From the NCBI GenBank assembly GCA_036785375.1, contig JAWMAR010002088.1:1-64000 (forward strand): DNA of 64,000 nucleotides. The letters are read 5' to 3'. This DNA comes from Leucoraja ocellata (lineage: Eukaryota). Shown one piece after another: positions 18,935 through 53,268 of the stretch. Made by a program: the position numbers and the translations under genes. The notes under the pieces are model-generated. The model was not told the DNA's origin. It saw only the letters and a list, made by a program, of their open reading frames with translations, and searched no databases. The stretch's first letter is position 1. Every line of letters begins with the position of its first letter.

Positions 18935-19049
18935 CTAAACTAAGTGGGACCTGTTGGGTCCCAGCATCACACGGGAGGGCAGGTCACCCATTGCAATATT
19001 CCACCTCTCCACCAATTCCAATATTGCTTGCCAGTACGAGTTACTCATA

Positions 19050-19812
19050 CCTGAATAGTGGCCGATTAGGAAAAGGGGAGATGCAACGAGACCTGGGTGT
19101 CATGGTACACCAGTCATTGAAAGTAGGCATGCAGGTGCAGCAGGCAGTGAAGAAGGCGAATGGTATGTTAGCATTCATAGCAAAAGAATATTATAGGAGC
19201 AGGTAGGTTCTACTGCAGTCGTACAGGGTCTTGGTGAGACCACACCTGGAGTATTGCGTACAGTTTTGTTCTCCTAATCTGAGAAAATACATTCTTGCCA
19301 TAGAGGGCGTACAGAGAAGGTTCACCAGACTGATTCCTGGGATGTCAGGACTTTCATATGAAGAAAGACTGGATAGACTCGGCTTGTACTCACTAGAATT
19401 TAGAAGATTGAGGGGGGATCATATAGAAACTTACAAAATTCTCAAGGGGTTGGACAGGCTAGATGCAGGAAGATTGTTCCCGATGTTGGGGAAGTCCAGA
19501 ACAAGGGGGTCACAGTTTAAGGATACGGGGGAAATCTTTTAGGACCGAGATGAGAAAAACATTTTTCACACATAGAGTGGGGAATCTCTGGAATTCCCTG
19601 CCACAGAAGGTAGTTGAGGCCAGTTAATTGGCTATATTTAAGAGGGAGTTAGTTGTGGCCCTTGTGGCTAAAGGGATCAGGGGGTATGAAGAGAAGGCAG
19701 GTAAAGGATACTGAGTTGGATGATGAGCCATGATCATATTGAATGGCGGTGCAGGCTCGAAGGGCCGAATGGCCTACTCCTGCACCTAATTTCTATGTTT
19801 CTATGTTTCTAT
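19050..19812 (+). mobile_element. CR1 family B 3' fragment inside the Helitron composite
   Basis: ORF2 C-terminus (ORF 19231-19542) and tttctatgtttctatg tail. Confidence 0.93.
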
Positions 19813-20042
19813 GACCTCTGGGCTCACTTACTGCCTTAGGATTAACTCATGGCCTTTGGACTGACTGACTGACTCACGGCTTGTGGACTGACTAATGCCC
19901 GACTTCTGGAGTCATGACTGACTTTTGTAAACTGAAAACTGTAACATCTACATTGAGGAACAGCTTCTTCCTGACAGCCATCGGGCTATTAAACGTAATA
20001 AATAAGATCTGAACTACGAATATTATTTGTGCTATTTGTTGA

Positions 20043-20500
20043 TCACACATACACAGACACATTCACACACACACACACACAAACTCATTCACACACATGC
20101 AGATTCATTCACACACAGACTCATTGACATACACATACACACACACACACACACAGACTCATTCACACACACACATTCACACACACTCATTCATACACAC
20201 ATTCACACACACACAGACTCATTCACACACAGAGATTCATTCACACAGACACACAGACACATTCATACACACTCATTCACACACACATTCACATGCACAT
20301 TCACACGCACATTCACACACACACACACACTCATTCATACACACATTCACACACACACTCATTTACACACACACAGACAGACTCATTCACACACACAGAC
20401 TCATTCACACACATTCACACACACACACTCATTCACACAGACTCATTCACACACACACACACACATTCACACACACACAGACTCATTCACACACACATTC
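20043..20500. repeat. Complex (CA)n/CATT/CAGA microsatellite
   Basis: Direct observation. Confidence 0.95.
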
Positions 20501-20879
20501 ACCCCCCCCCCCCCAATACTAAAATGCCAAGTAACTTCAGAACGTGTTGAATATACAGTGTATAAAACAAATCTTTAAGCCTGCTGTGGAGGCTGCTGCT
20601 GAAGCAAAATCATGCTTTTAATAACGTCAAACAAACACACTCACCATAGAGAGAGCAGTAAACTCATGAATTATTTAACAGCGCCTGAACTTGCCGCCAC
20701 CTTGATGTCACCCTCTCATGATGGTCTCAGCGCCAGCATGCAGCTAACCGGAAATGACACCATCGGCGCCATCTTGCAACCAAGCGAAAGTCACAGAATG
20801 AGCACCAATTTTAAAATTAAACACAATTCTGATCTAATACAATGTTTATTCACTTTATCCATCCGAAAATTGTTGCAAG

Positions 20880-21545
20880 CAAGCCCTATAAAAAGCCAAG
20901 CAATTGGGGGAAAAAAACACTGAGCAAGCCGACAAAATACACATCAGTTCGCTGAAAAGCAATTTAAGAATCAGTTTGGGGAAAAGCAATTTTAAAAATG
21001 CCAAGCAATTGGGGGAAAAAAAACAGAGCAAGTAAGCAAGGCGGGAAAATACACATCAGTTCGGTGAAAAGCAATGAAAAAAAATGCCAAACAATTGCAG
21101 GTGAAAAACACTGAGCAAGCAAACAAGCTGAAAAAAAAACACATCCTTTCCCTGAAAACACCATCGAGGGGACTCACCGTGGAATAGACGTGCTTCACAG
21201 CTCAGAGAGCCATGACCCTCTCGCTTCCTGGGTCTGGCAGAGACTGAATGAGGCACGGCACTTCTGGGTTGTATAGTCCCTCCCCCACGGAAAAAAAAAC
21301 ACTGAGCAAGCAGGCAAGCCGACAAAAAACACATCCCTTCGCTGAAAAACAATTAAAAAAATGCCAAGCATTTGGGGAATAAAACCACCGAGCAAGCAAG
21401 CAAGCCGTCAAAAAACAAATCCGTTCGCTGAAAACCACATCGAGGGGACTCACCGTGTAGACATGCTTCGCAGCTCAGAGAGCCGTGACCCTCTCGCTTC
21501 CTGGGTCTGGCAGAGACTGAATGAGGCACGGCACTTCCCGGTTTT
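20880..21545. repeat. Internal tandem duplications of Helitron 5' subterminal sequence
   Basis: Repeated cactgagcaagc...acacatc units; two copies of catcgaggggactcaccgtg...gaggcacggcacttc; homologous to 40440-40635. Confidence 0.75.
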
Positions 21546-22530
21546 CTAGTCCCTCCCCCTGCCGCCAGAGGGGGCAGCAGAGAGAATGGGGAATTTTGTA
21601 TAAACATTAATATCTCTCTAAAATGTTTCATCAACGGGAAAATCCTCTGCTCCCAGAAGGCGGACGGGGGCTCTGAGCGAGGTGGCCAAAAATGACAGTC
21701 GTAGGTTGCGACGTTCTCTTGGAAATCGCAGCACAGTGGGCCAAAAGCGGTCAAGATCAGACTTTTAGTAATATACTAGACCAAGTGCAGACCCGTTGGG
21801 TCTGCTCCCCGAATGGTGTGATTCCCCCAACCCAATATTCCACCATGCAACCGTCTCCTCCAACGGAACTGAAGCCGTTCCCAAATGTAAGATTCCAGCA
21901 CTCCCCTGCCTCCCTCAGCAGTGGATTTTTAAAAAATTCCAATTGCACCTCCCTGCCTGCTGCAGCAGTGAAAAGTTCAGTGTTCCTGTCTTGCAACTTT
22001 GTTTTGAAGTGTGTTGGAAGCTGATAGGAAGGAGCAGCCGTCAACGAATCAAAAGGCAGAAAGGCACCCGGATGGATGGACGGCAGGCGGCAGCCACAGA
22101 CTTTTATATAATAACTAGACCAAGTGCAGACCCGTTGGGTCTGTTTCCCCAACAGCGTTTGCGGGGGGGGGGGGGGGGGGGGGGGGGAGTAGGGGCTGCG
22201 GCATCACACTCAAATTAACCACCCCCCAAACTCACAGGTGGGGGGAGGGGGGGGGTGGGTGAGAAGAGGGGAGGGAGGGGAGAGGAGGAGGAGGAAACAT
22301 GACAGATTTGGGAGGGAAAGGAGAGCGGGGTAGGGGGTGAGAGAGGGGGATGGGGAGAGAGATGTGGGGGAGGGTGGGATGGGGAGGGAGGGAAGGAGGG
22401 AGAGACGGGAAAGAGTGGGGAGTGAGAGGGAGGAGGAGAGGGGTAGGGGAAGGGGGCGGGGTAGAGAGGGAAGGGGGTGAGGGAGAGGGGTGAGGGAGAG
22501 GGGTGAGGAGAGGGAGAGGGGTGAGGAGAG

Positions 22531-23533
22531 GGAAACATAGAAATGAAGTGCAGTAGTAGGCCATTCGGCCCTTCGAGCCTGCACCGCCATTCAATATGAT
22601 CATGGCTGATCATCCAACTCAGTATCCCGTACCTGCCTTCTCTCCATACCCCCTGATCCCCTTAGCCACAAGGGCCACATCTAACTCCCTCTTAAATATA
22701 GCCAATGAACTGGCCTCAACTACCCTCTCTGGCAGAGAGTTCCAGAGATTCACCACTCTCTGTGTGAAAAAAGTTCTTCTCATCTCGGTTTTAAAGGATT
22801 TCCCCCTTATCCTTAAGCTGTGACCCCTTGTCCTGGACTTCCCTAACATCGGGAACAATCTTCCTGCATCTAGCCTGTCCAACCCCTTAAGAATTTTGTA
22901 AGTTTCTATAAGATCCCCTCTCAATCTTCTAAATTCTAGAGAGTATAAACCAAGTCTATCCAGTCTTTCTTCATAAGACAGTCCTGACATCCCAGGAATC
23001 AGTCTGTTGAACCGTCTCTGCACTCCCTCTATGGCAATAATGTCCTTCCTCAGATTTGGAGACCAAAACTGTACGCAATACTCCAGGTGTGGTCTCACCA
23101 AGACCCTGTACAACTGCAGTAGAATCTCCCTGCTCCTATACTCAAATCCTTTTGCAATTAAAGCTAACATACCATTGGCTTTCTTTACTGCCTGCTGCAC
23201 CTGCATGCCTACCTTCAATGACTGGTGTACCATGACCCCCAGGTCTCGCTGCATCTCCCCCTTTCCCAATCGGCCACCATTTAGATAATAGTCTGCTTTC
23301 CCGTTTTTGCCACGAAAATGGATAACCTCACATTTATCCACATTATACTGCATTTGCCCACTCACCCAGCCTATCCAAGTCACCTTGCAGTCTCCTAGCA
23401 TCCTCCTCACAGCCAACACTGCCCCCCAGCTTCGTGTCATCCGCAAACTTGGAGATATTGCCTTCAATTCCCTCATCCAGATCATTAATATATATTGTAA
23501 ATAGCTGGGGTCCCAGCACTGAGCCTTGCGGTA
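22531..23533 (-). mobile_element. CR1-B 3' segment embedded in a Helitron unit
   Basis: ORF 22619-23485; tail abuts the purine tract at gaggagagggaaacatagaaa. Confidence 0.92.
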
Positions 23534-23728
23534 TTTTGAATACTGAAATATTGGGAGGGGGGGGAGAAGGATTTGATTAAAAATGTCTACATAAATATGA
23601 CAAAATGTAATCAGGAGTTTCTATAAGATCCTCCCTCAATCTTCTAAAATCTAGCGAGTACAAGCCGAGTCTATCCAGTCTTTCTTCATATGAAAGTCCT
23701 GACATCCCAGGAATTAGTCTGGTGAACC

Positions 23729-24500
23729 TTAACCATATAACCATATAACAATTACAGCACGGAAACAGGCCATCTTGACACTTCTAGTCCGTGCCGAACA
23801 CGTATTCTCCCCTAGTCCCATATACCTGCACTCAGACCATAACCTTCCATTCCTTTCCCGTCCATATAACTATCCAATTTATTTTTAAATTATAAAAACG
23901 AACCTGCCTCCACCACCTTCACTGGAAGCTCATTCCACACAGCCACCACTCTCTGAGTAAAGATGTTCCCCCTCATGTTACACCTAAACTTATGTCCCTT
24001 AATTCTCATGTCATGTCCCCTTGTTTGAATCTTCCCTACTCACAGTGGGAAAAGCTTATCCACGTCAACTCTGTCTATCCCTCTCATCATTTTAAAATGA
24101 CTCTATCAAGTCCCCCCTTAACCTTCTGCGCTCCAAAGAATAAAGCCCCAACTTGTTCAACCTCTCTCTGTAACTTAGTTGCTGAAACCCAGGCAACATT
24201 CTAGTAAATCTCCTCTGTACTCTCTCCATTTTGTTGACATCCTTCCTATAATTAGGCGACCAAAATTGTACACCATACTCCAGAATTGGCCTCACCAATG
24301 CCTTGTACAATTTTAACATTACATCCCAACTTCTATACTCAATGCTCTGATTTATAAAGGCCAGCACACCAAAAGCTTTCTTTACCACCCTATCTACATG
24401 AGATTCCACTTTCAGGGAACTGTGCACAGTTATTCCCAGATCCCTCTGTTCACCTACATTCTTCAATTCCCTACCATTTACCATGTAATTCCCTACCATT
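23729..24500 (-). mobile_element. CR1 family A 3' fragment inserted into the array
   Basis: aaccatataaccatata tail; ORF 24092-24499. Confidence 0.92.
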
Positions 24501-26976
24501 TACCATGTAAGAGGAGAGAAGTGGGAGAGTGGGGAGGAAGGGGTAGAGAGACTGGTGGAAGAGGGACAGATTGGTAGGGGAAGGGGGTGGGGGAGAGAGG
24601 GATGGGTGGCAGAGGGAGAGAGAGAGGGACACATAGAAACATAGAAATTAAGTGCAGGAGTAGGCCATTCGGCCCTTCGAGCCTGCACCGCCATTCAATA
24701 TGATCACGGCTGATCATCCAACTCAGTATCCCGTACCTGCCTTCTCTCAATACCCCCTGATCCCTTTAGCCACAAGGGCCACATCTAACTCCCTCTTAAA
24801 TATAGCCAATGAACTGGCCTCCAGTACCTTCTGTGGCAGAGAGTTCCAGAGATTCACCACTCTCTGTGTGAAAAATGTTCTTCTCATCTCGGTCCTAAAG
24901 GATTTCCCCTTTATCCTTAAACTGTGTCCCGCAACATGTGGAACAATCTTCCTGCATCAGACAAATGCAATTCAGGACTTTTCACTTCACAAGCAAATCA
25001 GAAATGACAGTTAGTGAAGAATTTGAATAATCACTGAGCGTTCTCTATGGCAACAATGTATTTGAGCATTGGGCATTGTGACATCACACGATGGAATGTT
25101 CACCGGGGCTGTGGCTCCTGCAAAGGCATATGTAAATGACTCCAATCCGATTGGCCATCTGTGAGCATCGGGCATTGTGACATCACACGATGGAACGTTC
25201 ACAGGGAGCTGCTTGTGTGGGTGAGAATCCAGTTTCTTTTTGAAATATTGAGGTGGTGGGGGGGGGGGGGTGTAGGATTTGATTAAAAAAGCGTACTCAA
25301 ACACGATGAAATGTAACGAGGAGCGGATACTTAGAAAGAAAAGCGAAATCTCTACCGAAATGGAAAAGACGTCGGCGATTCCGCGTCCGGTTTCGGAGTT
25401 GCGGAGCGTCAAAGGAAGAAACGCGGCGGACGCCGTACGGCGGCAGGCGGACTGATTCGAGTTTTATATATATACTAGACCAAGTGCAGACCCGTTGGGT
25501 CTGTTTCCCCAACAGCGTTTGCGGGGGGGGGGGGAGGGGGGAGGGGGAGTAGGGGCTGCGGCATCACACTCAAATTAACCACCCCCCAAACTCACGTGGG
25601 GGGAGGGGGGGGGGGGGTGGGTGAGAAGAGGGGAGGGAGGGGAGAGGAGGAGGAGGAAACATGACAGATTTGGGAGGGAAAGGAGAGCGGGGTAGGGGGT
25701 GAGAGAGGGGGATGGGGAGAGAGATGTGGGGGAGGGGGGATGGGGAGGGAGGGGAAGAGGGGGAGAGGGGTGGAGGGAGAGACGGGAAAGAGTGGGGAGT
25801 GAGAGGGAGGAGGAGAGGGGTAGGGAGAAGGGGGCGGGTGGAGAGAGGGAAGGGGTTGGGGTAGAGAGGGAAGGGGGTGAGGGAGAGAGGGAGAGGGGTG
25901 AGAGAGAGGGGTGAGGAGAGAGAGAGGGGTGAGGAGAGGGAAACATAGAAATTAAGTGCAGTAGCAGGCCATTCGGTCCTTCGAGCCTGCACCACCATTC
26001 AATATGATCAAGGATGATCATCCAACTCAGTATCCTGTACCTGCCTTCTCTCCATACCCCCTGATCCCTTTAGCCACAAGGGCCACATCTAACTCCCTCT
26101 TAAATATAGCCAATGAACTGGCCTCAACTTCTGTGGCAGAGAATTCCAGAGATTCACCACTCTCTGTGTGAAAAATGTTTTTCTCATCTCGGTCATAAAG
26201 GATTTCCCCCTTATCCTTAAACTGTGACCCCCTGTTCTGGACTTCCCCAACATCTGGAACAATCTTCCTGCATCTAGCCTGTCCAACCCTTTAAGAATTT
26301 TGTAAGTTTCTATAAGATCCCCCCTCAATCTTCTAAAATCTAGCGAGTACAAGCCAAGTCTATCCAGTCTTTCTTCATTTGAAAGTCCTGACATCCCAGG
26401 AATCAGTCTGTTGAACCTTCTCTGTACTCCCTTTATGGTCTGTTTCCCCAACGGCGTTTGCGGGGGGGGGGGTTGAGAAGAGGGGAGGGAGGAGGAGGAA
26501 ACGGGATAGATTTGGGAGGGAAAGGAGAGCGGGGTAGGGGGTGAGGGATGGGGAGAGAGCTTTGGGGGAGGGGGGATGGGGAGGGAGGGGAGCAGGGTGG
26601 GATGGGGAGAGGGGTGGGGGGAAAGAGGGGAAAGAGTGGGGAGGGAGGAGGAGAGGGGTAGCGGGAGTGATGGAAGAGGGACAGAGGGATAGGGGAAGGG
26701 TGTGGGGGGAGAGAAGGTAGGGGGTGGGGTAGAAGAGGGAAGCGGGTGGGGGAGAGAGGGATGGGAGAGGGGTTAGGAGAGGGGGAGGAGAGAGTGGGAG
26801 AGAAGTGGAAGAGTGGGGAGGGAGGGAGGGGTAGAGGGGTAGCGGGAGTGGTAGAAGAGGGACAGAGGGGAGGGGGGAAGGGGGTGGTGGTAGAGAGGGA
26901 AGGGGGTGGTGGTAGAGAGGGAAGGGGGTGGGGGAGAGAGAGATGGGTGGCAGAGGGAGAGGGGTGAGGAGAGGGA

Positions 26977-28205
26977 CACATAGAAACATAGAAATTAAGT
27001 GCAGTAGTAGGCCATTCGGCCCTTCGAGCCTGCACCATTCTCCATTCAATATGATCACGGCTGATAGAAACATAGAAACATAGAAATTAGGTGCAGGAGT
27101 AGGCCATTCGGCCCTTCGAGCCTGCACCGCCATTCAATATGATCATGGCTGATCATCCAACTCAGTATCCCGTACCTGCCTTCTCTCCATACCCCCTGAT
27201 CCCCTTAGCCACAAGGGCCACATCTATCTCCCTCTTAAATATATCCAATGAACTGGCCTCAACTACCCTCTGTGGCAGAGAGTTCCAGAGATTCACCACT
27301 CTCTGTGTGAAAAAAGTTCTTCTCATCTCGGTCACAAAAGATTTCCCCCTTATCCTTAAGCTGTGACCCCTTCTCCTGGACTTCCCCAACATCGGGAACA
27401 ATCTTCCTACATCTAGCCTGTCCAACCCCTTAAGAATTTTGTAAGTTTCTATAAGATCCCCTCTCAGTCTCCTAAATTCTAGAGAGTATAAACCAAGTCT
27501 ATCCAGTCTTTCTTCATAAGACAGTCTTGACATCCCAGGAATCAGTCTGGTGAACCGTCTCTGCACTCCCTCTATGGCAATAATGTCCTTCCTCAGATTT
27601 GGAGACCAAAACTGTACGCAATACTCCAGGTGTGGTCTCACCAAGACCCTGTACAACTGCAGTAGAACCTCCCTGCTCCTATACTCAAATCTTTTTGCAA
27701 TGAAAGCTAACATACCATTCACTTTCTTCACTGCCTGCTGCACCTGCATGCCTACCTTCAATGACTGGTGTACCATGACACCCAGGTCTCGCTGCATCTC
27801 CCCCTTTCCCAATCGGCCACCATTTAGATAATAGTCTGCTTTCCCGTTTTTGCCACCAAAATGGATAACATCACATTTATCCACATTATGCTGCATCTGC
27901 CAAACATTTGCCCACTCACCCAGCCTATCCAAGTCACCTTGCAGTCTCCTAGCATCCTCCTCACAGCTCCCCCCCTCTCCATACCCCCTGATCCCTTTAG
28001 CCACAAGGGCCACATCTAACTCCCTCTTAAATATAGCCAATGAACTGGCCTCCACTACCTTCTGTGGCAGAGAGTTCCAGAGACTCACCACTATCTGTGT
28101 GAAAAATGTTTCCCTCATCTCAGTACTAAAGGATTTCACCTTTATCCTTAAACTGTGTCCCGCGTGTCCTGGACTTCCCCAACATCTGGAACAATCTTCC
28201 TGCAT
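26977..28205 (-). mobile_element. Nested CR1-B 3' fragments within a Helitron unit
   Basis: Second tail at ~27065 inside the first; ORF 27162-28205. Confidence 0.85.
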
Positions 28206-30886
28206 CAGACAAATGCAATTCAGGACTTTTCACTTCACAAGCAAATCAGAAATGACAGTTAGTGAAGAATTTGAATAATCGCTGAGCGTTCTCTATGGCA
28301 ACAATGTATTTGAACATTGGGCATTGTGACATCACACGATGGAACGTTCACCATGGGCTGGGATCCTGCAAAGGCATATGTAAATGAATCCATTCCGATT
28401 GGCCATCTGTGAGCATCGGGCATTGTGACATCACACGATGGAACGTTCACAGGGAGCTGCTTGTGTGGGTGAGAATCCAGTTTCTTTTTGAAATATTGAG
28501 GTGGGAGGGGGGGGGGGGGGTGTAGGATTTGATTAAAAAAGCGTACTTAAACACGACGAAATGTAACGAGGAGCGGATACTTAGAAAGAAAAGCGAAATC
28601 TCTACCGAAATGGAAAAGACGTCGGCGATTCTGCGTCCGGTTTCGGAGTTGCGGAGCGTCAAAGGAAGAAACGCGGGGCGGGGAGGAGGGAGGGATGGGG
28701 AGAGGTGTGGGGGGAAATAGTCGGGAGGGAGAGTGAGGGGAAGGGGGAGAGAAGTGGAAGAGTGGGGAGGGAGGTGGAGAGGGGTAGCGGGAGTGATGGA
28801 AGAGGGGCAGAGGGATAGGGGGAAGGGGGTGGGGGGAGAGAGGGAAGGGGGTGGGGTAGACAGGGAACGGGGGTGGGAGAGAGAAGGATGGGAGAGGGGT
28901 GAGGAGAGGGGGAGGAGACAGTGGGAGAGAAGTGAAAGAGTGGGAGAGAAGTGAAAGAGTGGGGAGGGAGGGAGGGGTAGCGGGAGTGGTAGAAGAGGGA
29001 CGGGGAGTGGTGGAAGAGGGACAGAGGGGAAGGGGATGGGGTGGGGGAGAGTGGGGAAGGGAGGGGAAGAGAGAGGGGTGGGGGTGGGAGAGGCATGGGG
29101 TAAGGGGATAGAAGTGGAAGAGTGGGGAGGGAGGGGTAGGGGGAGTGGTGAAAGAGGGACAGAGGGGTAGGGGGAAGGGGGTGGCGGTAGCGAGGGAAGG
29201 GGGGTGGGGGATAGAGAGATGGGTGGGAGAGTGAGAGGGGTGGGGAGAGGGAAACATAGAAATTAAGTGCAGGAGTAGGCCATTCGGACCTTTGAGCCCG
29301 CACCACCATTCAATATGATCATGGCTGATCATCCAACTCAGTATCCTGTACCTGCCTTCTCTCCATACCCCCTGATCCCTTTAGCCACACAGGCCACATC
29401 TAACTCCCTGTTAAATATAGCCAATGAACTGGCCTCAACTACCTTCCATGGCACAGAATTCCAGGGATTCACCATTCTCTGTGTGAAAAATGTTTTCCTC
29501 ATCTCGGTCCTAAAAGATTTCCCCCTTATCCTTAAACTGTGATCCCTTGTTCTGGACTTCCCCAACATCGGGAACAATCTTCCTGCATCTAGCCTGTACA
29601 ACCCTTAAGAATTTTCTATAAGATCCCCCCTCAATCTTCTAAATTCTAGCGTGTACAAGCCGAGTCTATCCAGTCTTTCTTCATATGAAAGTCCTGACAT
29701 CCCAGGAATCAGTCTGGAGAACCTTCTCTGTACTCCCGACATTTTTCCGATTTTCTCTAATTTAATAAAAATGTGCAAGTCTTATTCATATCGAGTTTCA
29801 GCGGTGATTTATATAAATATTTTTACACAATATGTGACAATTTCATGTAGTTTGGTGACTTGGGTCACGAAACTGCTGAATAAAGCTCCTCGGCCCACAG
29901 CCTATTCTCTGTACTCCCAATATGGCAACAATGTATTTGAACATTGGGCATTGTGACATCACACGATGGAATGTTCACCATGGGCTGTGGCTCCTGCAAA
30001 GGCATATGTAAATGAATCCATTCCGATTGGCCATCTGTGAGCATCGGGCATTGTGACATCACACGATGGAACGTTCACAGGGAGCTGCTTGTGTGGGTTA
30101 GAATCCAGTTTTGTTTTTGAAATATTGAGGTGGCGGGGGGGGGGGGGGGGTGTAGGATTTGATTAAAAAAGCGAACTTAAACACGACGAAATGTAACGAG
30201 GAGCGGATACTTAGAAAGAAAAGCGAAATCTCTACCGAAATGGAAAAGACGTCGGCAATCCTGCGTCCGGTTTCGGAGTTGCGGAGCGTCAAAGGAAGAA
30301 ACGCGCGGCGGACGCCGTACGGCGGCAGGCGGACTGATTTGAGTTTTATATATATACTAGACCAAGTGCAGACCCGTTGGGTCTGCTCCCCCAATGGTGT
30401 GATCCCCCAACCCAATATTCCACCATGCACCCGTCTCCTCCATTGGAACTGAGCCCGTTGCCAAATGTAAGTTTCCAGCACTCCCCTGCCTCCCTCAATT
30501 GCAGCCCTCCCCTGCCTGCTGCAGCAGTGAAAAGTTCAGTGTTCCTCTCTTGCAACTTTGTTTCGAAGTGTGTTGGAAGCTGATGTAAATGGAGAAGCCT
30601 GTTTATTTTTGAATTACTTGGGGGGGGGGGGGGGGGGGGGGGAGAAGGATTTGATTAAAAACATGTACTTCAGCACGACGAAATGAAATGAGGAGCGGAT
30701 ACTTAGAAAGAAAAGCGAAATCTCTACCGAAGGGGAAATATCTCGGAGATTGAGCGTCCGGTTTCGGAGTTGCGGAGCGTCAAAGGAAGAAACGCGCGGC
30801 GGACGCCGTACGGCGGCAGGCGGACTGATTTGAGTTTTATATATATATAGATAAAGAAGATAAGAAAGATAAGATAGATAGATAGA

Positions 30887-34678: not shown

Positions 34679-37600
34679 ACACAGTTTATCACAGTCTCCT
34701 CCCACCCATCTCTATGAGCTGTGTTGCAGCTAATAGACATGCTGCCTATGAGGACCTGGACTCAGTTCTGATCTCTTACAACCTGGCATTTTTTTAAATT
34801 TTTCCTGCAAACGTGTGTTTTCTATGGTTATTCCAGTTTCCCCCAACGTCCCAAAAATGCCGGGCTGAAAGGTAAGTTGGCCAGTGTGAATTGATCATGC
34901 AGATGTATTAGAATTGCTGTAGGGGATGGGGGAAGTGTTAATGGCAGAGTGGAAAATATTAAATGGGTTAGCGTACCACAAGTATAAATAGGTGTTTGAT
35001 AGTTACCACGAACTTGGTGGGCTAAAGGGCCTTTTTATGGTCTGTACCCAGAGGCCACAAGTTTAAGATGAGGGGGGAATGATTTAATAGGAACCTGAGT
35101 CGTAGCTTTGTTACACAAAGGGTGGTGGGTGGAACTGAATTAACTGCCGGAGGAGGTAGTTCCGGCACGTACTATCGCAACATTTTAGAAACACTAGACC
35201 AAGTGCAGACCCATTGGGTCTGTTTCCCCAACGGCGTTTGCGGGGGGGGGGGGGGGGGGGGGGGGGGGGCGCATCACACTCACATTAACCACCCCCCCAA
35301 ACACACAGGTGGGGGGAGGGGGATGAGAAGAGGAGGGGGATTGGAGAGGAGGAGGAGGAAACAAAACAGATTAGGGAGGGAAAGGAGAACGGGTAGCGGG
35401 TGAGAGAGGGGGATGGGGAGAGAGATGTGGGGGAGGGAGTGATGAGGAGGGAGGGAGGGAGGGGAGAGGGGTGGGGAGAGAGAGGGGAAAGAGTGGGGAG
35501 GGAGAGTGGAGGGGGGAAGGGGGGAGAGAAGTGGAAGAGTGGAGAGGGAGGGGTAGGGGCAGTGGTAGAAGAGGGACAGAGGGGTAGGGGGCAGGGGGAG
35601 AGAGGGAAGGGTGGGGTAGAGAGGGAAGGGGGGTGGGGGAGCGAGGGATGGGGGAGGGAGTGAGGAGAGGGGGAGGAGATAAGGGGGAGAGAAGTGGAAG
35701 AGTGGAGAGGGAGGGAGGTGTAGAGGGGTAGCGGGAGTGGTGGAAGAGGGACGGGGAGTGGTGGAAGAGGGACAGAGGGGTAGGGGAAGGGGTGGGGGAG
35801 AGAGGGGTGTGGGAGGGAGAGGGGTGGCGTAAGGGCAGAGAAGTGGAAGAGTGGGGAGGGAGGGGTAGGGGAGTGGTGGAAGAGGGACAGAGGGGTAGGG
35901 CGAAGGGGGCAGGGGAGAGAGGGAAGGGGGGTGGGGAGAGCGGTGAGGAGAGAGAAACATAGAAATTGGGTGCAGGAGTAGGACATTCGGCCCTTCGAGC
36001 CTGCACCACCATTCAATATGATCATGGCTGATCATCCAACTCAGTATCCCGTACCTGCCTTCTCTCCATACCCCCTGATCCCTTTAGCCACAAGGGCCAC
36101 ATCTAACTCCCTCTTAAATATAGCCAATGAACTGGCCTCAACTACCTTCTGTGGCAGAGAATTCCAGAATTTCACTCTCGGTGTGAAAAATGTTTTTCTC
36201 ATCTCTTTCCTAAAGGATTTCCCCGTATCTTTAAACTGTGACCCCTTGTTCTGGACTTCTCCAACATCTGGAACAATCTTCCTGCATCTAGCCTGTCCAA
36301 CCCCTTAAGAATTTTGTAAGTTTCTATTAGATACCCCGTCAATCTTCTAAAATCTAGCGAGTACATGCCGAGTCTATCCAGTCTTTCTTCATATGAAAGT
36401 CCTGACATCCCAGGAATCAGTCTGGTGAACCTTCTCTGTACTCCCTCTATGGTAACAATGTATTTGAGCATTGGGCATTGTGACATCACACGATGGAACG
36501 TTCACCAGGGGCTGGGGCTGGGGCTGATTCTATGGGTGAGAAGCCAGTTTTTTTTTAAAATATTGGGGGGGGGGAGAAGGATTTGATTAAAAATGTGTAC
36601 ATAAACATGACGAAATGTAATCAGGAGCGGATACTTTGAAAGAAAAGTGAAATCTCTACCGAAATGGAAAATATCTCGGCGATTCTGCGTCTGGATTCGG
36701 CGTGGCAAGGAATCAAAGGAAGAAAGGCAGTCGACAGCCGTACATGTAAATGGATCTATTCCAATTGGACATCTGCGAGCATTGGGCATTGTGACATCAT
36801 ACGATGGAACAAATCAAAAGGCAGAAAGGCAGGCGGACGGACGGACGGACGGGGGCAGCCACAGAGTTTTAATCTATAACTAGACCAAGTGCAGACCCCT
36901 TGGGTCTGTTTCCCCAACGGCGTTTGCGGGGGGGGGGGGGGGGCTGCGGCATCACACTCACATTAACGACCCCCCAAACACACAGGTGGAGGGAGGGGGG
37001 TGAAAAGAGAGGAGGGAGGGGAGAGGAGGGGGATGGAACGGGACAGATTTGGGAGGAAAGGAGAGCGGGGTAGCGGTTGAGAGAGGGGATGAGGAGAGAG
37101 ATATGGGGGAGGGGAGGGAGGGGAGGAGGGAGGGAGGGGGAGAGGGGTGGGGGAAGAGAGGGGAAAGAGTGGGGAGGGAGACTGGAAGGGGAATAGGGAG
37201 AGAAGTGGGGGGAGTGAGGGGTAGGGGGAGTGGTGGAAGAGGGACAGAGGGGTAGGGGAAGGGGGCGGGGGGAGAGGGAAGGGGGTGCGGTAGAGAGTGA
37301 ATAGGGTGGGGGAGAGAGGGATGGGTGGGAGAGGGAGAGGGGTGAGGAGAGGGAAACAGAAACATAAGAAACTATAAGATCACCCCTCAATCTTCTAAAT
37401 TCTAGCGAGTACAAGCCGAGTCTATCCAATCTTTCTTCATACTCTCTGCCACAGAGGGTAGTTGAGGCCAGTTCATTGGCTATATTTAGGAGGGAGTTAG
37501 ATGTGGGCCTTGTGGCCAAGGGGATCAGAGGGTATGGAGAGAAGGCAGGTACGGGATACTGAGTTGGATGATCAGCCATGATCATATTAAATGGCGGTGC

Positions 37601-38771
37601 AGGCTCGAAGGGCCGAATGGCCTACTCCTGCACCTAATTTCTATGTTTCTATGTTTCTATATGAAAGTCCTGACATCCCAGGAATCAGTCTGGTGAACCT
37701 TCTCTGTACTCACTCTATGGCAAGAATGTCTTTGGGCATTTGGCTTTGTGACATCACACGATGTAACGTGGGGTGAGAGAGGGGAATGGGGAGAGAGATG
37801 TGTGGGAGGGGAGGGATTGGGAGGGAGGGGAGGAGCGAGGGAGGGGGAGAGGGGTGGGGGGAGATAGGGGAAAGAGTGGGGAGGGAGAGTGGAGGGGGAA
37901 GGGGGAGAGAAGTGGAAGAGTGAGGAGGGAGGGGTAGAGGAAGCGAGTGGGGGAGAGGGAAGGGGGGGGGGGTGGGGGAGAGAGACATGGGTGGGAGAGG
38001 GAGAGGGGTGAGGAGAGGGAAACATAGAAACATAAGATTCTATAAGTGTGAATATAAATTCTATATGAGTCAGTCTGGTTAACCTTCTCTGTACTCCCTC
38101 TATGGCAACAATGTCTTTGGGCATTGGGCATTGTGACATCACATGATGGAACGTTCACCAGGGGCTGGGGCTGGTACAAAGGCATATGTAAATGGATCCA
38201 TCCCGATTGGACATCTGCGAGCATTGGGCATTGTGACATCACACGATGGAAACGAATCAAAAGGCAGAAAGGCAGCCGGACAAACGGACGGCGGCAGCCA
38301 CAGAGTTTTAATATATAACTAGACCAAGTGCAGACCCATTGGGTCTGTTCCCCCCAGTTGTGGGGGGTGGGGGGGAGGTGGCATGCAGCATCACACACAC
38401 TAACAACCCCTCCCCCCCGCCCTCATGCTAATTACCCCCCTTGATATTATATTAATATTATTAATTTGCTCCTTTTATCCCATAACCACCCTATCTACTG
38501 ACGCATAGCCCCAACTTGCAGTCACATCTAGAGAGGGGGGGAGGGGGAGGGAGGGGTAGAGAGTGAGGGCAGAGAGAGAAGGGGCAGAGACACAGAGAGA
38601 GGGGCAAGAGGGAGAGGGGTGGCGAGGAGGAGAAGAGGGAGGGTGGGTGAGAGGGGAAAGGTGGGGGTGGAGGGGAGGAGAGAGAGAGGGTGAGAGTGAG
38701 GGGAAGAGAGGGGGGAGGAGAGGGGGGGAGGGGAGGGGGGGAGGAGAGGGGGGGAGGAGAGGGGGAGAGGA

Positions 38772-39985
38772 GAAACATAGAAACATAGAAAGTAGGAGCG
38801 AGAGTAGACCACCAGGCCGTCGAGCCCGCACCGCCATTCGCTCATGGCTGAACACTAAACAGACACACTTACCCACAAACAGTAGACACAAGACACAGAA
38901 CACAAGACACTACCCTCCCCTTTATACCGCTATCACCCCTCTCCACCCCAAGAACCTCGTGATCTCCTGGGGGAGGCAAAAATACGGATAAAAACCCAGG
39001 TCCAATTCGGGAAAAAAATCCGGGAAATTCCTCTCCGACCCCAATCCAGGCGATCGACACTTGTCCAGGAGATCACTCAGGTCTTACTATACTAACCATA
39101 CCTAGGTCCATATCCCTGCCCTCTCCCCGTAGCCCCTTATCCCCTTGGCAGCTAAAAAACCATCTATTTTAGTCTTAAATATATTTAAAGTTTCTGCTTC
39201 CACTGCTCCCTGGGGCAGTGAATTCCATAAATTAACCACCCTCTGGGTGAAGAAGTTCTTCCTCATCTCAGTTTTAAAAGAGCCCCCCTTATTCTGCAAC
39301 TATGTCCCCTAGTTCTAGTTTCCCCGATCATTGGGAACATCCTCGGTGCATCCACCCGATCAAGGCCCCTCACGATCTTATATGTTTCAATGAGATCGCC
39401 TCTCATTCTTCTAAACTCCAAAGAGTAGAGTTCCAGCCTACTTAACCTTTCCTCATATGTCAATCCCCTCATTGCAGGATTAATCTTGTAAACCTTCGCT
39501 GCACTGCCTCCAGGGCTAGTACATCCTTTCTTAAGTATGGACCCCAGAACTGTACACAGTATTCCAAATGTGGTCTCACTAATACTGTGTACAGCTGCAG
39601 CAAGACCTCCGTGTTTTTATACTCAATCCCCCTAGCAATAAAGGCCAAAACTCCATTGGCCTTCCTGATTGCTTGCTGCACCTGCATACTAACTTTCAGT
39701 GATTCATGTACTAATACCCCTAGATCCCTTTGCGTTGCATTACAACGCAGCTCCTCCTCATTTAGAAAATAACTTGCCCTATCATTTTTTTCCCAAAGTG
39801 AATGACTTCACATTTATTAGTATTAAATTTCATCTGCCAAGTTGTTGCCCACTCACCTAGCTTATCTATATCCTTTTGCAGACTCTTCCTATCCTCCTCA
39901 TCCCCTACTTTTCCTCCCATTTTTGTATCGTCCGCAAATTTTGATATATTACACTTGGTTCCCTCCTCCAAATCATTTATATAAA
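38772..39985 (-). mobile_element. CR1 family C fragment (distinct 3' UTR) inside a Helitron unit
   Basis: ORFs 39762-39971 (KFADDTK), 39469-39687, 39263-39472 and 39102-39299; gaaacata tail. Confidence 0.88.
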
Positions 39986-40067
39986 ATGGGGGGAGAGGAG
40001 AGGGGGGAGGAGAGGGGTAGAGGAGAGGAGGGGGGGAGGGGAGGGGGGGACGAGAGATGGGGACGAG

Positions 40068-40215
40068 AGGGATTGGATGAGAGGGGGGGACGAGAGGGGG
40101 GACGAGAGGGGGGGCGAGAGGGGGGGCGAGAGGGGGGCGAGAGGGGGGGCGAGAGGGGGGCGAGAGGGGGGGCGAGAGGGGGGGCGAGAGGGGGGGCGAG
40201 AGGGGGGCGAGAGGG
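40068..40215. repeat. (GAGAGGGGGGC)n ~11-bp tandem repeat
   Basis: Direct observation, about 12 units. Confidence 0.85.
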
Positions 40216-41028
40216 GGGAGAGGAGAGGGGGGAGAGGAGAGGGGGGGAGGTGGAGAGGGGGGGGAGGTGGAGAGAGGGGGGGAGAGGAGAGGGGGGGGGG
40301 GGGGGGGGAGAGGAGAGGGGGGGGAGAGAGAGAGTGCCTTTTTATTTCAACCCAAACCCCCAAACAACCATTTGGAGGCAGTGCTTTTTGACTTTAACCA
40401 TATTTTCATTTTCAAACCACATTAATGGTACTTACTCACAGTTGTGTGCACATTTGTTCAGTTTATTCACAGCTCAGAGAAACGTGACCCGCTGCCTTCC
40501 TCCAGCTTGCAGACTAATTGATGCACACCACTTCCCGGTTTTATACGGCCGTAGGTGGCGGTGTTCTCTCGGAAATCGCAACACAGATGGCCAAAACTGG
40601 TCAAGAACAGACTAACAGACTTTTAGTAATATAGACTAGACCAAGTGCAGACCCGTTGGGTCTGTTTCCCCAACGGCGTTTGCGGGAGGGGGGGGGCGGG
40701 TGGCTGTGGCATCACACTCACATTAACCACCCCCCAAACACACAGGTGGGGGAGGGTGGGTGGGAAGAGGGGAGGGAGGGGAGAGGAGGAGGAGGAAACA
40801 GAACAGATTTGGGAGGGAAAGGAGAGCAGTATAGGTGTTGAGAGAGGGGGATGGGGAGGGAGGGGGAGAGGGGTGGGGGAAAGAGGGGAAAGAGTGGGGA
40901 GGGAGAGTGGAGGGGGAAGGGGGGAGAGAAGTGGTACTGATGAAATACAGGCACTGTAGATGGGGCATGTTGGCCGGTGTGGCAGTTTGAGCCGTAGGCC
41001 CTGAGTCCATGCTGTATGACTCTACGAC

Positions 41029-41093
<65 letters not shown>

Positions 41094-41980
41094 AAAACTC
41101 TCATCTTGACCGCTTCCTGTCTGCATTGCAACTAAATTTGCGCAAAACGACCCCCCAGAGGGCAATGATTTTTTGCACCTTACTAATCATTCTCCAATGC
41201 TACAAGTCAAATAGGTTTTGTTTCGATTGGTGAAATAGTACAAAAGTTATGGTATTCAATGATCCCCCTCCCCCACAACCCCCCCCTCCACCACAGCCTC
41301 CCTTCTCGCACACGACCCCTCCCCAAACCCCCACCCCCATTTCTCCACATCACCCTTCCCCCACCCCCACCTACCTCCCCACATCTCCCTCCCCCCACAC
41401 ACCCCCTCCCTCACATCGCCTCGTTCACACACCCCCACACCCCGCCTCCCCCACCCCCTCCCCACACCTCCCTCCGCAACTGTCCCCCAATACTCCCCAA
41501 CCCCACCCCCTCCCCCACACAACCCCCAACTCCACCCTACCCCCGTCCCCCACACACCCCCTCCCCAAACTCCCCCACACCGCCCTCCCCCACACCCCAT
41601 CCCCTCACACCCCTCCTCCACTCCACCCTCCTTCCCCCTCCCCACACCCCCCTCTCACACACCCCCTCCCCCACACCACCCTCTCACAACGCCTCTCCCC
41701 CACACCCCTCCACTTCCGCACATCCTCTCCCCCACATCCCCTCCCCAACCCCTCCCTCAACTCCCTCCCCATCCCCATCCCATTAAACCCCCCCTCCCCC
41801 ACACCACCCTCTCACAATGCCCCTCCCCCACACCCCCTCCACTTCCCCACATCCTCTCCCCCACATCCCCTCCCCCAACCCCTCCCTCACCTCCCTTTCC
41901 CACCCCCAACCCCCTCCCCTACACCCCCCTCCACCCACCCCTGCCACAAACACCCTCTCTCTCACACCCCCACCTCTTAA
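41029..41980 (+). mobile_element. (TCTG)n followed by a Helitron 5' end on + and a C-rich tract
   Basis: TCTATAAAACTC...TCTTGACCGCTT at 41089, resembling the 5' ends at 21775 and 40635; no 3' CTAG seen. Confidence 0.6.
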
Positions 41981-42418: not shown

Positions 42419-42610
42419 GGCTCCTGACCCAAATTGTTACCTGATCATTGATGCTGCCTGCCCCACTGAGCTCCTCCAGCACTTGGATCTGCAGATCCTT
42501 GTAACACCCTTATTCAAATTTCTTGTACTGTTATCAGTTTTAGCATTAATAGCTTTGAGTTCTTTACAGTGAATGATACAATCATACTCATTTTTGTTTA
42601 TGCATTGCAG

Positions 42611-42871
42611 ATTTTCACCAACTTGCATTTTACTACCTGTTGAACCATGGATTGAGTGAGCTGCCTGAGTACAGTATGGTAGCAATGTTGGATGACCTCC
42701 AGATAGCATATTTTGACAGCACATTAGAGCGGGCTGTTCCCAGACAGCGATGGATGGCCCAGTCTTTCCCGCAGGATCACTGGGATTCAATGGCCATCAC
42801 AGTTGCAGGTTTTCATGGGATTGTCAAAGGAAATGCTGAGATCGTTTACCAACAGCAACATGGTATATTGA
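42611..42871 (+). CDS. MHC class I-like exon 2 (alpha1 domain)
   Basis: ttgcAG acceptor, A|GTAAGT donor, 261 nt; (D)FHQLAFYY...LPEYSMVAMLDDLQIAYFDS...AVPRQRWM...DHWD. Confidence 0.92.
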
Positions 42872-42989
42872 GTAAGTGTCGTGACCGGACCTGGGGTGGA
42901 GACCCAGTGATGCCACAGATGGATTTTGTTTTAGTTTTGTTGCTGTCACATGTACTGGAGTAATCTGACACACTTGTTTTGCACGTTAG

Positions 42990-44200
42990 TCAATCACACC
43001 AAATAATATTATTCACAAATACAATCAAACCAAACTCAAGTACAATAGGTAGAGCAAAGAGTGCAGAATATAGTTCTCAGCATTGTAATGTGCCAGTGCC
43101 AGAGACAAAGTCCAGTGTCTACAACAAGGTTGAGGTGACCCCTAGCATAAGGGAGGACTGTTCAGAAACCTGATAACATTAGGGAGGAACCAGCTACTGA
43201 GTCTAGTGGGGCACGTTTTCAAGCTTGCGTACCTTCTGCTGGATGGAAATGTTAAAATTGTACAAAGCATTGGTGAGACCAAATCTGGAGTATCGTGTAC
43301 AATTTTGGTCGCCCAATTATAGGAAGGATGTCAACAAAATAGAGAGAGTACAGAGGAGATTTACTAGAATGTTGCCTGGGTTTCAACAACTAAGTTACAG
43401 AGATAGGTTGAATAAGTTAGGTCTTTATTCTCTGGAGCGCAGAAGGTTAAGGGGGGACTTGATAGAGGTCTTTTAAATGATGAGAGGGATAGACAGAGTT
43501 GATGTGGACAAGCTTTTCCCTTTTAGAATAGGGAAGATTCAAACAAGAGGTCATGACTTCAGAATTAAGGGACAGACGTTTAGGGTAATATGAGGGGGAA
43601 CTTCTTTACTCAGAGAGTGGTAGCTGTGTGGAATGAGCTTCCAGTGGAAGTGGTGGAGGCAGGTTCGTTGGTATCATTTAAAAATAAATTGGATAGGCAT
43701 ATGGATGAGAAGGGAATGGAGGGTTATGGCATGAGTGCAGGCAGGTGGGACTAAGGGAAAAAGGTTGTTCGGCACGGACTTGTAGGGCCGAGATGGCCTG
43801 TTTCCGTGCTGTAATTGTTATATGGTTATATGGTTATATGGAAGAAGAAGGAATGACCAGAGCGGGATGAATCTTTGATTATGTTGTCTGCTTTCCTGAG
43901 CCAGTTGAAATACAGATGGTCTCAATGGTGGGGAATTGTGTTTGTGTGATCGACTGTGCTACATCTCCACATCTCGGCAATTTCCAGCGGTCTTGGGCAG
44001 AACTCTTTCCAAACTAAGTTGTGATGAATCCTGCCAGTATGCTTCTATGGAACATTCGTAGAAGTTTGTAAGTGTCATTGGAGATGCCGCATTTCCGTAG
44101 TGTCCTGAGGCAGTAGGGGAACCAGAAGCTCTCAAACCTTTTCACTTCAGCACCATTGATGCTGTTTCGGGCATTTACTCCATCACATTTTGATAGAGAC
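42990..44200 (-). mobile_element. Degenerate Rex1/Babar-like LINE 3' region interrupted by CR1-A
   Basis: Minus strand ccatagaagcatactggcaggattcatcacaac resembles the IESILxGCITxW motif. Confidence 0.5.
43249..43840 (+). mobile_element. CR1 family A 3' fragment
   Basis: ORF 43225-43476; ttatatggttatatggttatatgg tail. Confidence 0.93.
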
Positions 44201-44378
44201 ACGGCCCATCTTTTATATTAAATGTGTCCTTACCGCTGAACACCCATTGATAACAGTTGGCTGGTGATAATATATTTATGGGTTATGCATTTGATATTCA
44301 ACACCAGTAATAAGTGGATGGAATGGATCATCTGTTTAATTGGGCTAGAATGAGGGAGAAAACATTAGTTTATTTATA

Positions 44379-44475
44379 TTCTGAAGAAGGGTTTTGACCT
44401 GAAACGTTGCCTATTTCCTTCGCTCCATAGATGCTGCTGCACCCGCTGAGTTTCTCCAGCACTTTTGTGTACCTT
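44379..44475 (+). mobile_element. Penelope-like repeat with intact hammerhead core motifs
   Basis: CTGAAGA-A-GGGT-TTTG-ACCT-GAAA-CGTT at 44381-44408. Confidence 0.55.
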
Positions 44476-44741
44476 AGTTTATTTATAGCCTGATCACCTA
44501 GAGATGGGACCTTGATTTAAGCTGGTTGATGGTGATTATGATGTATTCCTTCAGTAATAATATTCTGTTAATGCAGCATTCCCTCAATATTGGCAACAAT
44601 CCTCAGAGGGTGTAGCAATCCCACATGGTGCAACAGCCTTGATGTACTTCCCATCTGCATTGCCTTAACCTTCAGACTTACCTGTTGGCTCTGAAGCATT
44701 ACCCATCTGACAATGCACTTCTTCCTTTGTTCTTTATGTAT

Positions 44742-44833
44742 GAAATCTGAGTTCTATCCTTCTTACAGAGCAGAACACCTTTAGTGCAGAAATCTGAGTT
44801 CTATCCTTCTTACACAGCAGAACACCTTTAGTG
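44742..44833. repeat. Direct tandem duplication, 47-bp period
   Basis: gaaatctgagttctatccttcttaca(g/c)agcagaacacctttagtg twice. Confidence 0.9.
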
Positions 44834-45376
44834 TTACATCCACAACAGCAAAGCTTCTCCCCTCAACACTTGAGGTTAGTCTATGCCCTCAGTATATAGA
44901 CCATGGGTCATAGAGTCATTGTCACACATCATGGAAAACGGCCCTTCTGCTCACTGAATCCACACTGATCATCAATTGTGCTAAGATGGAGTCATAGCCA
45001 ACTGCAGATGCTGCCAATCTGAATTAAAAACAAACAGGAGGAACTCAACGAGTCAGTCAGCATTCTGTGGAAAAATGGACAGAAAACATATTAGACCAGG
45101 ACCATTTAGAGTGATGTAGGTTGGAGAAAGCTGGAAAGAAAGTAGTCTGTGTAGGATAGTGTTAATATGCGGGGACCACTGGTCGGTACGGACTCGGCGG
45201 GCTAAAGGGCCTCTTTCCGCGCTGTATCTCTAAACTAAACCTGCTCCTGTGCTGTACAGCTCTATGTTGTGTTCTGTTATGCCTGTTTGTACCATGCTGA
45301 GAACTGATTTGTAAATTGCCTCTCCCCTCCATCCCCACTCCCCAACCCAAATCCTCCACCCCTACCTCAGCCCCAG

Positions 45377-45652
45377 CTATTTTCTTTGTGCAGGGTTTCT
45401 GCGGCTGTGAAGTGGACAGTGACAATTCCACTGATGGGTTTGTCAGACTAGGTTATGACGGGGAGGATGCCTGTGCTTTCGACAAGGACAGAATGCGCTG
45501 GATTGCACTACGTCCAGATTTCCAGGTGCTAGCAGATCGGTGGAATATCAACACCTTCATGAACAAATATTTCAAAGATCTCCTGGAGAAGGACTGTGTG
45601 AAGTGGCTGCTGATATATGTGGAGTGTGGACAAGAAGCACTACAGAGGAGAG
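45377..45652 (+). CDS. MHC class I-like exon 3 (alpha2 domain)
   Basis: cccAG acceptor, G|GT donor, 276 nt; VQGFCGCE, GYDGED, DCVKWL carrying the C101/C164 pair. Confidence 0.94.
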
Positions 45653-45755
45653 GTACACGACCTAGGCACTCTGACTGGTGGGACCGGGGATATCCTCTAG
45701 ATAGATAAGGTGGGAAATATCATGCACTTCAGGCTGACACTTGAGCAATTATTTT

Positions 45756-46055: not shown

Positions 46056-46336
46056 TTCTTGGGCGAGGGTATCAGTAAATTGTCTGGCAACGTGTCTCTT
46101 AGATGGATCCAGTGGGTAGGAAGTGCAAGTGAAACATTAACATTGCACAAGTGTCCACTATTCACACATATAGATATTCAATAAATGGAGGGATATGTAT
46201 CTTGATCTTATGTTCAACACCGACCTTCTGGCCTGAAGGGTCTGTCGCTGAACTGATCAGAAACCCAAACAGATTCTCTATTTGCCTCTATTACTCCTTA
46301 GGTTGGTAACATTCAATTTCCAACAGTTCTCTGGTT

Positions 46337-51873: not shown

Positions 51874-53218
51874 CTAGACCAAGTGCAGACCCGTTGGGTC
51901 TGTTTCCCCAACGGTGTTTGTGGGGGGAGGACGTGGGGGGGCTGCGGCATCACACTCACATTAACCACCCCCCAAACACACAGGTGGCGGGAGGGGGGGT
52001 GAGAAGAGGGGAGGGAGGGAGGGGAGAGGAGGAGGAGGAAATGGGACAGATTTGGGAGGGAAAGGAGAGCGGGGTAGGGGGTGAGAGAGGGGGATGGGGA
52101 GAGAGATGTGGGGGAGGGGAGGGGGAGAGGGGTGGGGGGAAAGAGGGGAAAGAGTGGGGAGGGAGAGTGGAGGGGGAAGGGGGGAGAGAAGTGGAAGAGC
52201 GGGGAGGGAGGGGTAGGGGAAGGGAGTGGGGGGAGAGGGAAGGGGGTGGGGTAGAGAATGAAGGGGGGTGGGGGAGAGAGGCATGGGTGGGAGAGGGAGA
52301 GGGGTGAGGAGAGAGAAACATAGAAACATAAGATTCTATAAGATCCCCCCTCAATCTTCTAAATTCTAGCGAGTACAAACCGAGTCTATCCAGTCTTTCT
52401 TCATATGAAAGTCCTGACATCCCAGGAATCAGTCTGGTTAACCTTCTCTGTACTCCCTCTATGGCAAGAATGTCTTTGGGCATTGGGCATTGTGACATCA
52501 CACGATGGAACGTTCACCAGGGGCTGGGGCTAATTCAATGCGTTAGAAGCCAGTTTATTTTTGAAACATTGGGGGGGGGGAGAAGGATTTGATTAAAAAC
52601 GTGTACTTAAACATGACAAAATGTAATCAGGAGCGGATACTTTGAAAGAAAAGTGAAATCTCTACCGAAATGGAAAATATCTCGGCGATTCTGCGTCTGG
52701 ATTCGGCATGGCAAGGAATCAAAGGAAGAAAGGCAGTCGACAGCCGTACATGTAAATGGATCCATTCCGATTGGACATCTGCGAGCATTGGGCATTGTGA
52801 CATCATACGATGGAACAAATCAAAAGGCAGAAAGGCAGGCGGACGGACGGACGGGGGCAGCCACAGAGTTTTAATCTATAACTAGACCAAGTGCAGACCC
52901 GTTGGGTCTGTTTCCCCAACGGCGTTTGCGGGGGAGGGGGGTGGCTGCGGCATCACACAAGTGAAATCTCTACCGAAATGGAAAAGATGTCGGCGATTCT
53001 GCGACTGGTTTCGGAGTTGCAGGGAATCAAAGGAAGAAATACAGCCGGCAGCCGTCCATGCAAATGGATCCATTCCGATTGGACATCTGCGAGCATTGTG
53101 CATTGTGATTGGACATCTGCGAGCATTGGGCATTGTGACATCACACGATGGAAACGAATCAAAAGGCAGAAAAGCAACTGGACGGCAGCCGGTCGGATGG
53201 GGCGAGAGTTTTATATAT

Positions 53219-53263
<45 letters not shown>
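51874..53263 (-). mobile_element. Two-unit Helitron array in MHC intron 4
   Basis: CTAG at 51874 and 52882; 5' end TCTATATATATAAAACTC preceded by TCTA repeats (53220-53263 = 11 TAGA on +); flanks gcta|taat (A|T). Confidence 0.87.

Positions 53264-53268
<5 letters not shown>

Follow-up and report, generated by a model that had tools for sequence, protein, structure and literature searches.

The tandem Helitron arrays of this skate genome are in our judgement probably best explained by insertion 7–8 bases upstream of TAAA(A), a motif that also stands in the 5′ end of the elements themselves, by nesting of copies at this end, and by displaced stubs that seed (TCTA)n runs which then grow by slippage. 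The TAAA motif of its own 5′ end would lead a new copy to enter a few bases inside the 5′ end of a resident copy, the displaced first bases of the resident would be left on the outer side as a stub, and stacks of such stubs would likely seed (TCTA)n runs that are lengthened later. The transposase may thereby read TAAA as a ruler, stub length would equal head length minus 7–8 (12-nt heads giving TCTA, TCTT or TCATA, 11-nt heads TCT and 14-nt heads TCTATA), and arrays would be ordered youngest-first. The usual reading of tandem Helitron arrays is that they are rolling-circle concatemers. The joints analysed here display a measurable rule for target choice beyond the AT dinucleotide, a cut 7–8 nt before TAAA, which holds for genomic targets and for the element's own end; this spacing rule gives the arrays an origin other than concatemers and connects a transposon with the origin of a widespread microsatellite whose unit can be predicted. 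A practical caution is that numerous GATA markers of this genome have a repeat on one flank.

The window, i.e., the whole stretch of 64,000 nt of DNA that was analysed, contains the focal array on its minus strand. Its outermost head, TCTATATATATATAAAACTC, begins at 30851 (minus) directly after a stack of stubs, and CTAG|TATATATATAAAACTC stands at the two joints 30357 and 25475, each of which is short of exactly TCTA; stack, head and joints are present as an earlier note on this DNA had described them. The same applies to two runs that the note had placed next to heads, (TAGA)11 at 53220–53263 and (TCTG)n before a plus-strand 5′ end: read on the minus strand, (TCTA)11 at 53263–53220 adjoins TATATATAAAACTC (TRF call, 53215–53265), and on the plus strand (TCTG)n at 41029–41091 leads into TCTATAAAACTC. 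The 13-mer ATATATAAAACTC occurs four times in the window, compared to 0.09 expected occurrences. The focal array consists of six units with visible joints at 30357, 25475, 22115 and 21776, the latter two from other subfamilies, and one fused joint near 28896/28681; it ends at 18935. The features of the window are as follows:

30852..30886, minus: stack of eight TC-initiated stubs, reading TCTA TCTA TCTA TCTTA TCTT TCTTA TCT TCTTTA from 30886 to 30852
30357..30851, minus: unit 1, 495-bp non-autonomous Helitron with intact 5′ TC and with CTAG, its 5′ part 88% like the autonomous element
within 30357..30851, minus: hairpin of unit 1, 8-bp stem, ending 11 nt before the 3′ end
28896..30356, minus: unit 2, deletion derivative of the autonomous element, head without TCTA, 97% alike over 632 nt at the 5′ end, 3′ end lost
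25475..28681, minus: unit 3, head lost (fused joint with unit 2), hairpin-CTAG end at 25475
22115..25474, minus: unit 4, head without TCTA, subfamily A like units 1–3
21776..22114, minus: unit 5, subfamily B, head remainder TTATTATA-TAAAAG
18935..21775, minus: unit 6, subfamily G, head remainder TATATTAC-TAAAAG, decayed 3′ end of related type
beyond 18935, minus: genomic flank after unit 6, TAAA 8 nt after the cut
53220..53263, minus: (TCTA)11 run bordering the second array (two units) at its outer 5′ end
51874..53219, minus: second array, joint at 52882, last 3′ end at 51874, flank TAGCAAA-TAAAAG
35194..40664, minus: third cluster, joints at 40636 (which does read CTAG|TC), 38319 and 36880, last 3′ end at 35194
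41029..41100, plus: (TCTG)15 run ending TCTA-TAAAACTC, head of the related subfamily F

Units 1–4 are deletion derivatives of the autonomous element: compared to an autonomous copy, their 5′ parts are 88–97% and their 3′ parts 80–84% alike, and the comparison of ends gave 84–97% at both ends. The 3′ region of the autonomous element (copy positions 9560–10690) contains LINE-like and pyrimidine-rich captured pieces which recur in the non-autonomous units (window 25471–30363). Unit 6 (18935..21775) is likely the oldest unit of the focal array. An outer 5′ end of the third cluster (35194..40664) was not located, and the subfamily F head (41029..41100, plus) has no matching 3′ end in the window. 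Two near-identical units (window 36300–36900 and 52300–52900, minus), which belong to separate arrays 16 kb apart, share the junction remainder TTATAGATT. A paralog of the focal flank was searched in the assembly and none was found except repeat matches. Contigs from four runs do not span the stack, and indels at 30856–30871 were not used as alleles of the focal site as they derive from other copies.

As judged from its sequence, we class the family as canonical Helitron (Helitron1) with RepHel partners, because it combines TC and CTAG ends, an A|T target and RepHel frames between the same termini. The 5′ TC terminus is found at 30851 and at the outer ends of the fetched loci, and the 3′ end is CTAG (CTRR) with a subterminal hairpin (8-bp stem, −8.9 kcal/mol, ending 11 nt before the end); hairpin and CTAG together recur as 9,800 exact copies across the assembly of 3.44 Gb. 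At the A|T insertion site, T follows in 76/76 flanks and A precedes in 108/126 parsed outer ends, and seven zero-gap empty-like copies reveal no target duplication. A Pfam search returned 120 Helitron Rep matches among 150 scored candidates. Ten fetched loci contain open frames of up to 1,851 aa between or near the termini of the family, and the one frame scanned, of 1,851 aa, matches both PF14214 (Rep, HUH; E 8e-54) and PF05970 (Pif1-type helicase; E 2e-68). Helitron2/Helentron elements (DINE-1-like, with TT or T-rich sites and without TC...CTRR ends) were considered and rejected, the ends here being TC and CTAG and the target A|T. Autonomous-looking Helitrons with uninterrupted frames of 1,520–1,851 aa were seen at L165–L166 (G000:C2153), L163–L164 (C2974) and L167–L168 (C168); they themselves sit inside nested arrays, and some of these contigs contain intact CTAG|TC joints. 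Within-subfamily similarity, used as a proxy of age, amounts to 62/150 in F and 120/150 in G versus 135–144/150 in A, B and D, and thus sets only F and G apart from the rest. Reads of run X5, which carries another organism label, cover the subfamily-A head at a depth of 66 compared to 50,000–204,000 in the other three runs, a weak hint, given no weight here, that subfamily A is young.

The joints disclose how the units are connected. The pattern CTAG|T-N4-14-TAAAA[CG]TC matches 2,898 joints in the assembly, heads longer than 15 nt falling outside both joint patterns used. Among the first 100 of the 2,898 listed joints the distance from cut to TAAAA is 8 nt in 78, 7 nt in 15 and 9–14 nt in 7 cases, and the same spacing of 7–8 nt is present in 153/166 joints of the fetched loci. 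Ordinary genomic targets follow the same rule: T-N5-8-TAAA is found in 50/76 distinct non-junction flanks (and missing from 26/76) compared to 2,024/57,664 A|T sites, a background of 3.5%. The intact head consists of TCTA, 8 nt and TAAAA, and it therefore offers a target at its fourth base. This fixed-distance target, common to ordinary genomic targets and element heads, is an insertion-site cause that was absent from the earlier note. Independent insertions were also observed at or next to one position of one host repeat (L235, L264 and L076; L253 and L031; L002, L010 and L039), and such repeated hot spots are consistent with a target motif.

The nesting step itself is captured by one pair of paralogous loci. 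L247 and L249 agree in the upstream flank that borders the stack, in the stack, in the inner unit (98% over 600 nt) and in the downstream DNA (97% over 1,874 nt); L249 contains in addition a 3.17-kb unit at TCTATA|TTATATATATAAAAC together with one additional stub, TCTATA, while L247 has an uncut head at the nesting site. A collapse by recombination would hardly recreate this uncut head, and we infer the direction of the change from the exact uncut head of L247 alone. The pair is the only one with and without a unit among 169 outer ends compared, its neighbouring units belong to different subfamilies, and it bears out the earlier proposal that new copies nest in a resident 5′ end. Units of subfamily A, which have the same head as the intact-frame elements, stand upstream of a unit from another subfamily in 44 cases and downstream of one in 3, in a sample that is enriched for subfamily A and contains more downstream than upstream DNA, with only 23 pairs in the unbiased subset. 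The pattern is genome-wide, and, taken as a reading of these sequences, self-targeted nesting with a simple sequence basis is well supported.

The stubs are related to the arrays, although not as a tally. Because automatic labelling of the junctions was not free of errors, singles and arrays were counted by hand from 126 parsed outer ends. This count leaves out the 20 zero-junction rows that were open, duplicates, internal heads, and mutated joints that had been mistaken for outer ends; L020, L271 and L289 were moved to the arrays, and the stub counts of L045, L080 and L008 were lowered. Following this curation, stubs are present on 47/50 arrays versus 22/42 singles, so that the outcome which would have counted against the earlier note, stubs on single copies as often as on arrays, is not what is observed. 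The median is four stubs in arrays and one in singles, and six or more stubs occur in 20 arrays versus none of the singles (Fisher P 5e-6). In 82 closed loci, uncurated, stub load rises with joint number (rho 0.47), which sustains the correlation anticipated earlier. The further idea that stubs record insertions one to one fails: half of the singles are stubbed, the same 82 uncurated loci contain 354 stubs versus 43 joints, the focal array has 8 stubs versus 5 joints, and a nested-order pairing of stubs with joints fails for five inner stubs at 30851. Fewer stubs than joints are found in 5/53 arrays (uncurated). The displaced piece is also not always TCTA as had been supposed, since TCTATA, for instance, occurs as well; the stub types comprise TCTA (522), TC (27), TCT (22), TCTG (21), TCTATA (13) and others. 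They would fit head length minus 7–8, and TCT and TC stubs could instead be small deletions inside a TCTA run. A stack thus records that an end was attacked and not the number of attacks, because single copies probably gain stubs by further routes.

Three such routes can be envisaged. Arrays may collapse by recombination between units, as in the paralogs L381 and L401, which have an identical outer end with two more units in L401, joint number thereby changing without a change in stubs. Stubs may also ride along from an upstream TC: in one body variant 3/3 copies at unrelated sites begin with a TCTATA stub while few others do (small numbers), and a composite Helitron of ~1 kb, which combines an internal second 5′ end with captured host DNA (77 exact copies, 76 of them fetched; L258, L261, L262, L284 and L344–L411), has spread a (TCTA)n run as cargo. 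The third route would be local re-attack of the same end, for which joints between two composites are the example. Extended to the donor site, this last route becomes an explanation of its own, in which stubs would arise mostly at the donor and need no complete new copy: after a nick by the transposase in its own 5′ end and resynthesis of a few bases, the peeled end would be joined back, or inserted in cis into the regenerated end. We regard it as unlikely to be the main source of stubs, and as a contributor it is a realistic possibility that falls short of probable. Stubs on 22/42 singles speak for it, as does the finding that at 10 of ~39 joints behind a composite the next unit is again a composite, whereas no more than 77/1,588 would be expected (P about 1e-5), an excess which can be inflated by unequal crossing-over, and heads starting with TCATA adjoin TCA-type stubs in 5/6 stubbed cases. 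On the other hand, TCTT-type heads adjoin TCTA-type stubs in 9/13 stubbed cases, so that the stub is usually not the prefix of its own head; neighbouring units differ in subfamily in 74/166 adjacent pairs, L247/L249 being among such cases; and like neighbours can be multiplied by unequal crossing-over as well (L381/L401).

Insertion upstream of TAAA with nesting has also to be weighed against a mere preference for AT-rich DNA by which heads are struck passively. The related Helraiser inserts at A|T with an AT-rich bias that is strongest 3′ of the site, according to the text available (PMC4778049), and a weight matrix derived from the genomic flanks ranks heads high (median ratio 397); in an arithmetic estimate with neutral background it places 2–24% of insertions in heads for an assumed 10,000–100,000 heads, the upper value being reached with 100,000. 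With the measured background, however, the same matrix predicts 0.3–3% for the same range, compared to 30/90 3′ ends in the fetched loci that are joints, and the TAAA peak is positional, its start lying 7 or 8 nt past the cut in 39/60 genomic flanks. We therefore consider passive targeting very improbable, and the observed third of 3′ ends in heads likely needs more than the motif, such as local re-insertion and later unequal crossing-over.

That arrays are rolling-circle concatemers with trimmed joints, and the stubs unrelated slippage, is scarcely credible. Neighbouring units are of one subfamily in 92/166 pairs, and among the first 100 listed of the 118 joints that read CTAG|TC, 38 keep a head of 10–15 nt, several of them on contigs with autonomous copies. 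These 118 are set against 2,898 joints in total, of which 96% do not begin with TC, and this upholds the earlier statement that the arrays are not pure concatemers. Moreover, the spacing of the cut equals that of genomic targets, the stub load rises with the joints in the closed loci, the L247/L249 pair documents a nested unit, and mixed-subfamily arrays largely refute concatenation; with 74/166 neighbours of different subfamily the joints are likewise not all copies of one ancestral joint, which had been named as a possible refutation of nesting.

Nesting at a TAAA-spaced target is further compatible with the empty sites. A search for 39 sites gave an adjacent match for 13, of which seven, the focal site included, have zero gap and no TCTA run; the remaining adjacent matches are low-complexity or offset and were not taken as clean empties, and the match to L045 reveals its apparent stub as flank. 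The progenitor site of the composite's internal head (L378, L390) is repeat-free as well, with TAAA 8 nt on, so that, contrary to a further objection foreseen in the earlier note, these sites did not already hold (TAGA)n. A targeting of pre-existing (GATA)n microsatellites, for which one might name the roughly 15% of perfect runs that adjoin a head and the microsatellite-disrupting Helitron-like elements reportedly described by Coates in 2010, has a negligible probability, as no (TCTA)n continues 3′ in 85 listed non-junction flanks and the repeat-free empty sites refute it for the sites tested.

Once seeded, the runs change in length without new joints. The internal stack inherited by the composite ranges from 2 to 50 units, sometimes of TCTG or TCCA and mostly without an added joint, and at L269 (G000:C8:11103648-11113293) four tandem 1.7-kb copies of flank, stack and head contain 12, 14 and 20 stubs in the duplicates. 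Slippage likely drives run length, in agreement with what had been proposed from the window. The whole assembly contains 10,850 perfect runs with at least six TCTA. On one strand, 852 matches with TAAAA within 14 nt were counted among 5,377 runs (a few runs being counted more than once) versus 156 in a reversed-pattern control, and 14/15 displayed run loci with nearby TAAAA are element heads; because of these numbers we estimate that about 15%, or one in seven, of the perfect (TCTA)6+ runs adjoin a Helitron head, which provides the fraction of (GATA)n loci next to heads that the earlier note had suggested measuring. In a phase-biased sample 13/25 run loci abut a head. At L183, L193, L195 and L203, (TCTA)n runs follow ACAATAAA and a few bases without a Helitron head; these are apparently retroposon tails and thus a second GATA source.

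More tentatively, the transposase might measure its cut from the very TAAA by which its own 5′ end is marked, and might favour renewed attack on its own end or that of a neighbour, including the freshly regenerated donor. Such a ratchet would write a microsatellite with a unit set by the first bases (TCTA, TCATA), would make at least 15% of the GATA runs of the genome, and could be general in canonical Helitrons with AT-rich, TAAA-bearing heads.

Microsatellite-carrying rolling-circle elements were reportedly described by Wilder and Hollocher in 2001 (DINE-1/mini-me) and by Coates in 2010 and 2011 (lepidopteran Helitron-like elements). As far as the available accounts go, the repeat is internal cargo or target there, whereas in the skate family the first bases of the element would give rise to a repeat outside its 5′ end; the likeness lies in rolling-circle elements being a source of microsatellite loci, and DINE-1-like elements are stated to carry microsatellites in the available text (PMC4067079). 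Helibat and Helraiser, in the portions at hand, share with the skate family the 5′ TC, the 3′ hairpin-CTAG, A|T insertion without duplication, a RepHel partner and the 3′ AT-rich bias, but their circles have precise CTAG|TC joints, and the text reports an AT-rich bias rather than a fixed-distance TAAA motif, self-targeting or stubs (PMC4778049, PMC5876387). FoHeli of Fusarium resembles the skate family by self-insertion near the 5′ end, and mobilisation from the outer terminus is described to yield elements with several 5′ ends and one 3′ end; in contrast, it is Helitron2-like, and the sections available describe few cases with repeated pieces of 31–85 bp at varied offsets and neither motif nor microsatellite (PMC5148889). 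A preference for insertion near or inside other Helitrons and tandem clusters are likewise known from nested or multiple-termini Helitrons of maize and adjacent Helitrons of bat and maize, but the available text explains them by nesting or bypassed termination without a base-precise position or target motif (PMC3288121, PMC4067079). Helitron self-insertion and Helitron-borne microsatellites are thus already known; in the accessible parts of the literature searched, neither a fixed-distance TAAA motif common to target and element end nor microsatellites arising from displaced first bases were found, and the fixed-distance motif and stub seeding are apparently new (PMC4778049, PMC5876387, PMC13286980, PMC10288648, PMC5148889, PMC12001565, PMC3288121, PMC4067079, PMC4224331).

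Besides the Helitron arrays, the window contains exons of an MHC class I-like gene at 42577–49793 on the plus strand, with MHC_I matches at 42577–42960 (below the cut-off) and 45301–45705 and a C1-set match at 49431–49790.
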